This document shows, piece by piece, positions 20,801 through 25,396 of a DNA stretch of 64,000 nt (the first letter of the stretch is position 1; each line of letters starts with the position of its first letter). The translations under genes and the position numbers were made by a program. The notes beneath the pieces are model-generated. The model was not told the origin of the DNA. It was given only the letters and a program-made list of their open reading frames with translations, and searched no databases. Location of the stretch: assembly GCF_037042905.1 (NCBI RefSeq), contig NC_087250.1:18726001-18790000 (forward strand). Reading direction: 5' to 3'. This DNA is from Lytechinus pictus (taxonomy: Eukaryota).

Positions 20801-22732
20801 GTAAATTACAACAAAATTTACAAATCCCCATTTTATATTCACAAGAGTCTACAATATTCACCAAAATCTGAGGTAGAATAAAATGCCTAAAATAATATAT
20901 ACTAAGAAAACTAAACTGAGCCCGGCACTCGAAGTAAACCTAATTCATGAATGATTTGCAGGAAACAAAAGTCAAAATATTATCATCGCAATCGTAATTT
21001 CATTTTACATCAAGCTCCCACGTACAAAAAACATACATTAGCATATACACCTCCACTCACACATACACATATATAAACAATCATAATTATTTACAAATGT
21101 GCTCAAAGACTTAAGCATTTTATTTCCTGCAACATAAGGAACAGGGGAAAAAATGAAAATTACATTATTATAAGAGGAGGGGAAATCGACAAGAACTCAT
21201 ACAAAAATGCACCCTGCAACACCAAGATTCACTCTCGCACTATGCTAGTCACCGCATACCTGTTCATGTTCAAATCTCTATTCACATTCAGTACATCCCA
21301 TTTCTGTATACTTAACTTGTCTGACTTCGTTGATAGGCGTCTGTGTTCCTTGTTTCATACAACCCGCAATGTATTGCGTTATTTTAGTTGCCTTGCTTCA
21401 ATTTACGGCTGGTACTAAGCCTAAATTGCTTACCTTGACAGCCAATCACAGCTCGCCGTTTAGCGTCCATTGTCTTTTTTGCGGTTCTATTTTATATTGT
21501 TTCGCTATGAAGCTATAGTCATTCATGTGATTTTACTCAGATGACTGCATACCGAAAAGCTTCAGTATGTCCGTTTCTAAGGCTATTTCATAATACATTT
21601 CTGTATTTTGATAAATGAGGTACCCGGCCTTCAGCTCTGAAATTGAATATTGCACGTATTTTATTAATAAAATAACAAAATTAACACATTTATTTCTATT
21701 TGAATTTCCATTTAATTCAAAGGATATACCCCTCCAAGCCGCAGTTCTTAATTCAAATGAACAAAACTAATCAATACAAAATTGCCACAGAGGTTTAACT
21801 TTCAGACAATCCATGAGTAAATTAAAGTACATGTATGATTCGCACAACGTCAAAGACTAAAATGTCATTATCTTTATCATTGACTCACCTTCAATTATCT
21901 CGAGAGTGGTAAAATTCAAAGCAGGACCCTTTCCTCCTTCACCGTTAAGTCCCTCACGAACTGCTGAAATCCGAATCTCATACGACTGACCATCGTCCAG
22001 ACCAGAGATGTTGTACATCAGAATATCTAAATCTCCCTGTCTCTTTTTCCTAGAAGAATCATTTGGTAAGCGATTCACCTGAAGCTGTTTCATCTGCAAT
22101 CCGTCTCGTTCTTTCTTTACCGTTGTAAACACTTCATAGGAAGATTTCATTGATCCTCCATACCCTCGTCTTTTCCTTGAAGGCGCAGATCCTGGCGGTG
22201 ATGATGGAACACCCGAAGCTGTTAAGAAGGTGCTTGTTTCGTTGCCATCTGGGGTAGCAACGTATACCTTGTACCCGATGATAGGACCATCACCAACATC
22301 AACATCAGGGTTCCACGAATCCCAGGCAATGACGACATTTTTAAAACCTAGCTCTGCTATTCGAGGCTGATTTCTGATCATTGGGAGAACTAGTGGAAAG
22401 GTGTGTAAGTTGTATTTGATATAAATCATTTCATAAAGTGAGGAAAGGAAGGATTAACACATATTTTACACACACCCTCCTAGGCCTCCCTCACCCTCAA
22501 CCACTCGGACACACTTCCTGACGAATACCCTCTCACGTTCCTCCTCGCAGGAACACACTCACATTACACATGAAAGGATTGAGGAATGGGAACACGAAAA
22601 TATCTTTTTAACATTATTCATCTCATTTTCTTCGTTTTTGCCCATTCCATATATTCTATTTATTCTGTTAGGTAGCACAAACAAATATAAAAATGCATAT
22701 GTATATTGTATATTTTTACACACACACACACG

Positions 22733-22792
<60 letters not shown>

Positions 22793-23585
22793 AAAGAAAT
22801 GGATGAAGAGAACAAAGGTAGGCGTAGCTTAAATCAAGGTTCCCCAGAGCTATCTACCCTTTGGAAAAATTGGTGATGCCGAAAAAAATGTCTCTGCCGG
22901 GAATCGAACCCGGGCTCCCAGCTTTGAACGCCGGTGCCTTAACCACTAGACCACAGAGACGGGTTAGTGGCTAGGGTGACCCCGATCCGATTGACCGTCA
23001 GATAGACAGATTTTCGACATCATACCAATTATAATTTCCTTTGTCGGGTGAAGGTGGGTTTTGAACAATGACAAGCCGCCATGCCTCAGCTGGATCAAAG
23101 CTATTGCTTCGATACAGTACACGTATGGGAGAAGACATACAAATGTGTAAAGTGATACATGTACAACAGCTTTTGGCAACTCTTTTTTATTTAAATATTG
23201 TAAAGAAATGGATGAAGAGAACAAAGGTAGGCGTAGCTTAAATCAAGGTTCCCCAGAGCTATCTACCCTTTGGAAAAATTGGTGATGCCGAAAAATGTCT
23301 CTGCCGGGAATCGAACCCGGGCTTCCAGCTTTGAACGCCGGAAATTATAATTGGTATGGTGTCGAAAATCTGTCTATCTGACGGTCAATCGGATCGGGGT
23401 CGCCCTAGCCACTAACCCGTCTCTGTGGTCTAGTGGTTAAGGCACCGGCGTTCAAAGCTGGGAGCCCGGGTTCGATTCGCGGCAGAGACATTTTTTCGGC
23501 ATCACCAATTTTTCCAAAGGGTTGATAGCTCTGGGGAACCTTGATTTAAGCTACGCCTACCTTTGTTCTCTTCATTCATTTCTTT

Positions 23586-23623
<38 letters not shown>

Positions 23624-23692
23624 AAAGAAATGGATGAAGAGAACAAAGGTAGGCGTTGCCAAAGTTGCCAAAAGCTGTTGTACATGTAAAAC

Positions 23693-23736
<44 letters not shown>

Positions 23737-25396
23737 CACTGTTGGTCATAAAGGTGGAATATTTTTTTTCACCAAATTTTCACAGCGTAATTATTACAAC
23801 ATGATTTGAATATGGCATCTATGGTGCATGATAACCACTTTACTTTATTATTCTGCCTTTTACACACGTTTGACAGTGATATTTTACAAGTTTATGTCCT
23901 AAGCGATGGATGTCATGAGCATAAAACAACAATGACGACAATATACAGTACATTAAAGGATCATGATGTATTTATTTTTAATCTCTCTCAGTTTTCCAGA
24001 TGACTTCTTTTTTTGTGATTTAATGGACAAATTTGCATCAAACTTGAGACATTGTTCTTACTCAGTCACTAGTATCGGGTATGTCCACCCCTGGCACGAA
24101 CCAGCGCATGCAGACGTCGTGGCATGCTGTCCACTAGCTTGTTGATGACGTCAACAGGCATAGCGTCCCATTCTTCCCTCAGAGCATCTGCCAACTCCTG
24201 CAGATTTTGAGGAATGACCTCTCTGTCGTTGATGGCTCGGCCTAGGGCATCCCATGCATGCTCTATGGGGTTCATATCCGGCGAACAAGCTGGCCATGGC
24301 AACTGTACGACGCCCTCTGCCTCCAGGAATTCCCTTACTGCAGCGGCCCTGTGCGGTCTAGCGTTGTCATCCTGCAGTCGGAAATTGTGCCCATACACTC
24401 GTCTTGCATATGGACGACAGTGGAACTCCAAGATCTCGCTGTATGCAGCGGCGTTGGCGTTTCCGTCCGGAACCACCAGTGGCGTTTTCCCTCCATAATG
24501 GATGCCGGCCCATATCATCACTGAGCCGCCTCCGCCTTGAGTCGTCTCGTGGATACATTCATCGCTGAGGTTTTCCCCGGCTAATCGATGAACACGTTGT
24601 CTCCCATCCTTCCGGTCAAGGATGAATTGGCTCTCGTCCGTGAAGACTACATGTTGCCAATGTCCTGGATGAAGCCTTCTGTGCTCCCTAGCCCAAAGAA
24701 GACGAGCTACTCTGTGGCGAACAGACAGGCGTGGACATTTGGTCAACCCTCGTGCTCGGTAACCATGTTTGAGCAATCTGCGATTAACGGTTGACCGGGA
24801 AACGTTGATTCCATGATATCTCTTCCACAAACGACGAAGACGGCTCTTGGGCAATTTCCGGTTTCTGCGGCTGAAATTCAACAATTGGCGATCATCTCTT
24901 CTTGTGGTCAATCTGGGACGTCCTGGAGATTTCCGTGGCCGCACATTCCCCGCCTCACGTTGACGTTTCAGGATCTTAGAGACTGCACTCTGTGATATCC
25001 CTAGGACTTCTGCGATAACAGTCTGCTTGTAGCCCTCCTGTCGCAGTGCTACCACTCTCTCGCGTGTTGCTGTTGCCGTTGGACTAGGCATAGTCCAGGG
25101 AACGTCTCTACCGATTTTTATTCCAAACGGTACAAGGAACTCGAAAAAATGCAACCTTCTTATACACAGTGCTAAATCAGGGAAAGGGACATATTATCAT
25201 ATGCATAGGCTTTTATAGTCTACAACAAAAGAATTTATTACGTAATCCAAATTTCTCATGATATAATGTCACCTGTGTAATGGGGAAACATTATGTAATC
25301 ACTCAATTACCATTTTGTCTACGTGTAGCCTTTCAAATACCAACAAAACTGTCGATTTTTATTCAAAAATATTTTATTCCACCTTTATGACCAACA

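Follow-up and report, generated by a model that had tools for sequence, protein, structure and literature searches.

The window analysed here, a stretch of 64,000 nucleotides from the Lytechinus pictus genome (NC_087250.1, positions 18,726,001 to 18,790,000), contains two complete tRNA-like cloverleafs with the anticodon TCA and the 3' half of a third. This cloverleaf is probably an internal, tRNA-derived module of a young and abundant family of 406-bp non-autonomous repeats, which would spread in the manner of Penelope-like elements (PLEs) and make no translational use of the module. The cloverleaf is real and not a chance resemblance: an exact pattern made of its D arm and its T arm has 1161+676 (1837) matches in the genome, while the reversed control has 0+0. 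The list of matches includes the true tRNA-Glu-TTC and tRNA-Glu-CTC genes of this genome.

ARAGORN predicts exactly two tRNAs in the 64-kb window, at 22889-22960 on the minus strand and at 23419-23490 on the plus strand, each with anticodon tca. On the Rfam model RF00005 (gathering score 29) they score 60.2 and 49.8 bits, respectively, over model positions 1-71. The higher score falls inside the range of 51-75 bits found elsewhere in the genome (n=49, among the matches listed). The minus-strand copy is fully paired, and its stems, as read from the sequence, have 7/4/5/5 bp with two G-U pairs (11-24 and 29-41). In the plus-strand copy a single C>G change breaks one pair of the T stem. The 3' half, corresponding to tRNA positions 27-72, lies at 23296-23341 on the minus strand, or at 23291-23341 when its T5 run is included. 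In both full copies the anticodon loop reads G32, U33, T34-C35-A36, A37, and the anticodon is found as tga on the plus strand at 22925-22927 for the minus-strand copy and as tca at 23452-23454 for the plus-strand copy. Both the A box (TGGTCTAGTGG) and the B box (GGTTCGATTCC) are canonical. Straight after the discriminator follows a run of T: T7 at 22882-22888 for the minus-strand copy, T6 at 23491-23496 for the plus-strand copy and T5 for the 3' half. The first-pass annotation of the window had described the same stems, G-U pairs, loop, boxes and terminator, and the same tally of copies (one fully paired, one with a single mismatch, one 3' half); sequence, ARAGORN and RF00005 confirm it on all of these.

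The consensus cloverleaf also retains U8, A14, G18-G19, the T-loop TTCGA and G53-C61, which we take to be the nucleotides of the tertiary interactions. With these, its internal A and B boxes and the oligo-T terminator (T5-T7), the module resembles a functional tRNA gene. It departs from one in two ways. Position 32 is expected to be a pyrimidine, a purine being rare there in cytoplasmic tRNAs, and it is a G here; further, the anticodon of such a gene agrees with the body, and here arms resembling tRNA-Glu are combined with TCA.

The module is 72 nt long, with acceptor and T stems of 7 and 5 bp and a variable region of 4 nt, and so lacks the long variable arm of tRNA-Sec, as had been noted earlier. 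A tRNA-Sec gene measures ~86-90 nt; its variable arm is long and its acceptor and D stems are extended. The canonical tRNA-Sec genes of this genome have the same anticodon UCA as the module, but they are 86 nt long, score 76.9 bits on RF01852 and lie on other contigs. The label "SeC" given by ARAGORN follows from the anticodon alone. The sole RF01852 matches over the cut-off are G000:C2:54020026-54020111 and G000:C25:889015-889100, with identical scores, and the second of these may be a haplotig.

The genome searched comprises 811 Mb in 368 contigs. It contains 32 close matches to the 72-mer, and their flanks are conserved on both sides. Aligning these flanks and searching with BLAST gives a repeat unit of 406 nt, in which the tRNA occupies unit positions 238-309. 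A flank-anchored pattern that spans the tRNA has 1074+587 matches and one placed elsewhere in the unit, outside the tRNA, has 905+461, versus 0 for each control. The tRNA-bearing copies of the family number at least ~1,700-1,800, which bears out the earlier idea that a mobile element carries a stand-alone tRNA-like unit, complete with both internal boxes and directly followed by a T run. In any annotation of this genome the family would account for almost two thousand spurious tRNA calls of the "suppressor" or "SeC" type; ARAGORN labels the copies tRNA-SeC.

The family also forms an array, at G000:C2:8866197-8883655, where 44 tRNA-bearing units follow each other at a spacing of exactly 406 bp and 30 of the 43 complete units are identical. 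Microsatellites border it, (AC)n(AT)n on one side and (AT)n on the other. Satellite DNA is defined by a uniform monomer repeated head-to-tail over long arrays, and this array is of that kind; the other copies lie mostly in small clusters. The family would also be a clean example of a dispersed retroelement seeding a satellite-like array. The array copy of the cloverleaf scores 60.9 bits on RF00005. The copies in the window belong to a minor subfamily, with A rather than G at tRNA position 45; all other subfamily-diagnostic changes in the listed samples are outside the tRNA part.

Some further observations were made on the family and its surroundings. At unit positions ~112-140 two subfamilies are distinguished by two linked differences, GAGGCA…TTCAAAA versus GAAGCA…TTCGAAA, and two adjacent inverted copies on C2 are intermediate between these non-tRNA forms. 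About 300 bp past the (AT)n border of the array, to its right in the minus-strand view of L061-L065, there is a minisatellite with a unit of ~29 nt (…GGGAGACATAAGAAAGAATTCATACCTTA…). Three copies on C1 (G000:C1:2838298, 2842520 and 2846732), ~4.2 kb apart, have the same approximately seven changes in the tRNA part; they are a larger tandem duplication containing a decayed copy.

Next, we consider how well the copies are conserved. ARAGORN made 100 calls on 59 loci, one of which is a genuine tRNA-Glu and 99 are family copies. The anticodon is tca in 92 of the 99 (44 of them in the array), tcc in four, and taa, tcg and tta in one each. In an unbiased sample chosen by flanks and counted by eye, namely those 56 of the first 100 listed places that are dispersed, 54 have TCA, one TCG and one TCT. 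The family consensus is TCA, passed on from copy to copy. A freely varying anticodon, which the first-pass annotation held would speak against a decoding role, is therefore not what we see. However, TCA is kept because the family is young (~2% divergence), so its conservation says nothing about function.

In the flank-chosen sample 27 of the 56 copies match the consensus over tRNA positions 1-64, and the divergence of the tRNA part is 1.9% (~67 differences in 3584 nt, by eye). A non-tRNA control of the same length, from 66 dispersed entries, shows 2.8% (~120 in 4290 nt, by eye), or 1.8% without two subfamily-diagnostic sites. The stems were aligned in 26 ungapped copies (21 of 46 listed rows and five from L031-L060, truncated and indel-containing copies being excluded). 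The atypical G32, noticed already in the first annotation, is present in the window copies and invariant in all 26. In the 25 distinct copies a pair is broken in 31 cells and kept despite a one-sided change in 12, and there is a single double change, a number that 153 of 500 shuffles reach; stem covariation, proposed earlier as a check, is thus no better than in shuffled alignments. Under selection the tRNA part should have changed less than the flanks, with compensatory changes in its stems, and the copies show neither. Judged from these sequences, individual copies are not maintained as tRNAs, and their decay is neutral.

The insertion architecture was studied in 48 non-overlapping loci from L001-L060. 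The overlapping L005 and L028 were removed before BLAST and ten more overlapping or segmentally duplicated loci were also removed, while the array loci L061-L065 were treated separately. All were found via the tRNA, so the sample is biased to tRNA-containing copies, and 5' ends beyond position 250 are under-sampled. Same-strand tandem junctions occur in 29 of the 48 loci and head-to-head (-,+) junctions in 21, but tail-to-tail junctions in 0. The 3' ends are concentrated at two places: 33 of 86 hit chains end at unit positions 401-406 ("...CATTTCTTT" then CACA...) and 30 at positions 41-80 of the next unit ("...ATGTATAAYTTCACACA" then (TA)n). In contrast, the 5' ends of the 86 chains are spread across 19 of 20 bins, and most copies include sequence upstream of the tRNA. 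A dinucleotide microsatellite is found at most 30 nt from 57 of the 86 3' ends and from 18 of the 86 5' ends, compared with 119 of 6609 random 30-nt windows in the same loci.

Taken together, the fixed 3' ends, the scattered 5' ends and the polar inverted pairs indicate that copying begins at the 3' end, and suggest reverse transcription at the target site rather than random recombination or cut-and-paste. A Helitron or Helentron origin was considered in view of the Helentrons that carry satellites in bivalves; the scattered 5' ends and the polar inverted pairs argue against it. In two loci, L009 and L014 (with L066 and L067), the element copy begins at unit position 129, and all that the two have in common upstream is an unrelated repeat of ~300 bp directly next to it. 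They may represent a composite, or a junction that is preferred.

The family would spread by way of an RNA intermediate, from which target-primed reverse transcription would proceed from the 3' end of the unit into (TA)n or (CA)n tracts. The enzyme would most likely come from a PLE, since the architecture matches that of published PLEs, and arrays would then expand locally. The module would be a captured complete RNA polymerase III (Pol III) unit, yielding at most a short tRNA-like RNA or binding TFIIIC/Pol III, and would serve no translation. Because of the T6-7 run directly behind it, it would not drive transcription of the whole unit.

A serious but doubtful contender is an ordinary tRNA-derived short interspersed element (SINE), moved by a long interspersed element (LINE) and ending in a microsatellite-type 3' tail, with tandems and palindromes as secondary products. 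It would explain the tRNA-like module with A and B boxes as well as the fixed 3' ends that pass into (CA)n or (TA)n. Further, 13 of the 86 chains start at unit positions 221-260, near the 5' end of the tRNA, and would give units of ~166 or 226 nt, and tandem-like and palindromic structures are described for bivalve SINEs (PMC11481361, in part). A SINE2, however, has its tRNA head at the 5' terminus, from where Pol III transcribes the whole element, and no internal terminator. Here the tRNA is at 238-309 of a 406-nt unit, most copies continue upstream of it, and the conserved T6-7 directly after it would halt Pol III before the tail; the module is internal to the repeat and not a SINE head at its 5' end. 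As to the tail, 57 of the 86 3' ends are at a simple repeat, where target-site duplications (TSDs) are unreadable in the microsatellite flanks. Nor would SINEs that insert independently of each other be expected to give 21 head-to-head junctions and 0 tail-to-tail ones.

The scattered 5' ends also bear on a second class of elements, the Helenus-type TRIMs (miniature terminal-repeat retrotransposons). These are miniature long terminal repeat (LTR) retrotransposons with a tRNA-like sequence in their LTRs, and the 406-bp period would then be one LTR plus the internal region. They have been found in pteriomorph bivalves and other animals (Kojima 2024, PMC10886601, in part), one family, LTR-11_DR, is reported in tandem arrays, and in some fungi they account for all predicted tRNA-Sup-CTA genes (same source). 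All this invites the comparison, but we consider such an origin very improbable. A Helenus element has two TG..CA LTRs, a primer binding site (PBS), a polypurine tract (PPT) and, in animals, 4-bp TSDs, with its 5' end fixed. By eye, neither TG...CA ends, a TGG-type PBS by the LTR end, a PPT nor a 4-bp TSD was seen in our consensus and flanks. Four words of the element (15-19 nt) and the D-arm 8-mer TCTAGTGG have 0 matches in the consensus file of PMC10886601, where a generic B box has 19; the file has 70-letter lines, and words split at a line end may be missed.

An element mobilised by a PLE is recognised by truncation, tandems, an adjacent inverted copy and a bias to microsatellites (definition from PMC8557442, in part), and the family has all four, as the junction counts of 29/48, 21/48 and 0/48 illustrate. 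A second kind of mark is sequence in common with an autonomous PLE, or a hammerhead, and neither was found in comparison with PLEs that have a C-terminal endonuclease (EN). An Rfam search of three units at E<=10 gave no hammerhead; tRNA is the sole family found, and weak matches to mascRNA and others are far under the gathering scores. It is from the architecture, and from that alone, that we infer the link to PLEs.

PLEs are abundant in this genome: there are 59 matches to Pfam GIY-YIG, and those inverted pairs that lie close together, picked by eye, are all (-,+). Five PLE copies were fetched (L068, L069, L070, L071 and L072), all with a C-terminal EN. The 59 loci scanned have no reverse transcriptase open reading frame (ORF) beside the element copies. 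The L068 family (G000:C15:5902600-5907600) is a very young, high-copy PLE with a C-terminal GIY-YIG, represented by at least 111 scored copies among 1121 candidates. Over the last 366 aa its copies are 89-100% identical, and in many of them the open frame is long; the 3' untranslated region measures ~950 nt, and (AT)n abuts one of two 3' ends examined. In one locus (L002 1467-1690, G000:C5, near 50557641-50557864) a PLE copy of this family begins directly after the 3' end of a copy of the tRNA element, with a 12-nt duplication of the terminal motif of the element at the junction. As a partner this PLE was rejected, since the 5' flank of another of its copies is unrelated, so that the two elements are adjacent and have no sequence in common.

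The D loop and whole T arm of the module are the same as those of the tRNA-Glu-TTC gene of this genome (L053), which confirms the resemblance of the D and T arms to tRNA-Glu that had been noticed at first, and 47 of the 72 columns are invariant across this gene, the window copy and the array copy. The body matches no isotype consistently. A pattern search for the same acceptor stem combined with a different D arm gave 0 matches in the genome. An origin from tRNA-Arg(UCU), suggested by a resemblance of the acceptor stem and the anticodon loop, is unsupported by this search. Elsewhere in the genome, a dense cluster at G000:C4:9700711-9735957 has at least 40 genes on one strand, scoring 51-69 bits on RF00005, with a spacing of ~0.4-2.8 kb and apparently in repeated blocks.

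Transcription was studied in about a quarter of each of three raw RNA-seq runs, paired-end and labelled as the same species, accepting matches of at least 92% identity. The reads on 22781-23341 number 1419, 876 and 654 in the three runs. The unit is evenly covered, to the same extent in the two mate orientations, and clusters of molecule ends at 22889 or 22960 are absent from all three runs. Between 0.29 and 0.62 of the matching reads continue into unlike sequence. The even coverage and the continuing reads indicate that the family sequence is part of longer molecules, and these are host transcripts, read-through or contaminating DNA.

These reads bear on the idea that the cloverleaf is a processing signal, at which RNase P and RNase Z would cut tandem transcripts into unit-length RNAs, in place of the hammerhead of PLE-derived retrozymes. 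Such retrozymes, which are non-LTR elements, consist of tandem repeats of a few hundred bases (preprint 10.64898/2026.07.22.740005, in part). The tandem arrays here are like theirs, a hammerhead is lacking, and the consensus keeps a full cloverleaf even though Pol III needs the boxes alone. Cutting at the module would, however, leave 3' ends at 237 and a peak of 5' ends at 310. The 3' ends are instead at ~403 and at 54-62, no such 5' peak exists, and the RNA-seq reads cross the tRNA borders without an excess of ends, although they may be unprocessed or intronic RNA, or DNA. We therefore hold this idea to be improbable.

Several points weigh against a PLE-spread family with a module of no use. 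Polar truncation and microsatellite tails fit LINE-driven SINEs too, as do the tandem and palindromic forms reported in bivalves (PMC11481361, in part), and TSDs cannot be read in microsatellite flanks. The three C-terminal-EN PLE families sampled include no autonomous partner. The 3' flanks of two of them (L068/L070/L071 and L069) have no similarity to the unit, and for the third (L072) the EN region alone was read. In addition, no PLE with an N-terminal EN, the Naiad type, was found in this genome. RNA-seq libraries of the standard type used above cannot show mature or tRNA-sized RNA.

Other points concern the founder. Compared with tRNA-Glu-TTC, both partners are changed in 4 of the 7 acceptor pairs and in 3 of the 5 pairs of the anticodon stem, with pairing preserved, so the founder module looks selected for structure. 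The listed sample contains no subfamily-diagnostic change in the tRNA part except at position 45. By its sequence the founder would be a structurally constrained tRNA-like gene and not a decayed copy of tRNA-Glu, and this leaves a small probability of an RNA role in the master copies, as a processing signal, in Pol III/TFIIIC binding or, least likely, in decoding.

Decoding is what the first-pass annotation had raised as one possible use of the module: some copies would be working, chargeable tRNA(UCA) genes that read UGA, an opal suppressor that could aid retroelements with in-frame UGA. The consensus cloverleaf is indeed perfect, with the score of 60.9 bits, and its boxes and terminator are intact. 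Its stems differ from tRNA-Glu by double changes that preserve pairing, and 6 of the 59 GIY-YIG matches contain an in-frame TGA. However, at least 1,800 copies decay neutrally without compensation. G32 is atypical, the module would lack a recognisable set of identity elements for any synthetase, and active suppressor genes in the thousands would probably do harm. In the one PLE family examined, seven of the 111 scored copies have one TGA and two have two, and its ORF itself ends at TGA. The TGA at the second Cys of the zinc-finger-like CxxC motif within GIY-YIG (L068 832-834) is a private mutation, most of the 111 scored copies being stop-free there. The check for a partner with in-frame TGA, proposed earlier, gave this single PLE copy with a TGA at that Cys.

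The published PLEs with in-frame UGA have SECIS elements and read it as Sec (PMC8557442, in part), and a canonical tRNA-Sec (two loci) is present elsewhere in this genome. The earlier hint at Penelope therefore stands as far as the insertion architecture is PLE-like (same source), but not for in-frame UGA, which is not a family-level feature of the PLE examined. With neither purifying selection nor compensation in the copies, no family-level in-frame TGA in the PLE examined and a tRNA-Sec in the genome, opal suppression is not supported; a suppressor role of the module is very unlikely.

The two ideas may also be combined. The family would then be a hammerhead-less analogue of Penelope-type retrozymes, in which RNase P/RNase Z or Pol III/TFIIIC would recognise the cloverleaf of a master copy and release a stable tRNA(UCA)-like RNA that could enter the ribosome and favour some UGA read-through at a low level, which would profit retroelements carrying in-frame UGA. 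The sole pointer to such a selected RNA is that the stems are paired though they differ from those of tRNA-Glu, and we consider the combination quite improbable.

In the window the repeat cluster has a composite structure. An (AC)n then (AT)n microsatellite at 22720-22790, seen by reading the sequence and as repeat families D1/D2, abuts the 3' end of a full 406-nt unit (unit positions 1-406) at 22791-23199 on the minus strand, which is 95.6% identical in BLAST to the consensus of the 44-unit array. This unit contains the fully paired cloverleaf with its T7, an A7 on the plus strand. In tandem with it on the same strand, a partial upstream unit at 23200-23341 (unit positions 264-406, BLAST) holds the 3' part of the tRNA at 23296-23341 and its T5 at 23291-23295. 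A 5'-truncated inverted copy, starting from unit position 159, follows on the plus strand at 23340-23599 and is joined head-to-head at 23340/23341 (inverted repeats I1/I2, BLAST). It contains the second cloverleaf, the one with the T-stem mismatch, and its 3' end passes into (AT)n at 23600-23620, as read from the sequence. Further right are two fragments found by BLAST: 38 nt of the unit 3' end (unit positions 369-406) at 23622-23659 on the minus strand, similar to pieces in L034 and L043, and at 23663-23736 on the plus strand a "tail" fragment (unit positions 18-54) that runs into (CA)n(AT)n, which is the alternative 3' terminus of the family.

Two open frames flank the cluster. About 330 bp to its right begins a frame of 374 aa, at 24069-25193 on the minus strand, of a Tc1/mariner-type transposase (Pfam DDE_3 4.7e-15, HTH_Tnp_Tc3_2 1.8e-12). 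The other, of 198 aa at 21857-22453 on the minus strand, has a weak match to fibronectin type III (1.1e-05, 26 bits) and, from this similarity, may be an exon of a host gene.

Modules resembling tRNA are already known from SINEs and from Helenus TRIMs. Less familiar is a complete tRNA unit with its own terminator inside a unit of PLE-like architecture. The literature searched contained no description of a tRNA module in a PLE derivative, and the word "tRNA" is used 0 times in preprint 10.64898/2026.07.22.740005. Novelty is limited to this variant architecture, an internal complete tRNA unit plus terminator with a PLE-like signature and without a hammerhead. If a PLE partner is found, the family would be a tRNA-bearing non-autonomous PLE derivative.

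Compared with known systems, the family has in common with tRNA-derived SINEs a tRNA-related module, a microsatellite at the 3' end and both direct and inverted multimers. It differs from a classical SINE by the ~237 nt upstream of the tRNA, the T6-7 right behind it and inverted junctions that are solely head-to-head. Helenus TRIMs, also named "TRIMp3", are the closest published elements with a tRNA module (PMC10886601, in part): they too are non-autonomous, carry a tRNA-like sequence that has both boxes, A and B, and inflate tRNA or "suppressor" predictions. In contrast to them, the cloverleaf here is complete and its terminator immediate, and LTR ends, PBS, PPT and 4-bp TSD were not found in the consensus and flanks. 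With the PLE-derived retrozymes the family shares tandem amplification of its unit, but where they have a hammerhead it has a tRNA (10.64898/2026.07.22.740005, in part).

In comparison with the PLEs sampled, the 406-nt unit has neither a common end sequence nor a recognisable PLE-derived part. Naiad PLEs, on the other hand, show 5' truncation, partial tandems (pseudo-LTRs) and an inverted 5'-truncated copy by the 5' end, together with an optional terminal "tail" of 30-40 bp and a preference for insertion into (TA)n, and they lack a canonical hammerhead (Craig et al. 2021, PMC8557442, in part). The 406-nt family resembles them in each of these: it is 5'-truncated, forms partial tandems, has an adjacent inverted 5'-truncated copy, uses (TA)n-type targets, has no hammerhead and has an optional tail, here of ~55-62 nt.

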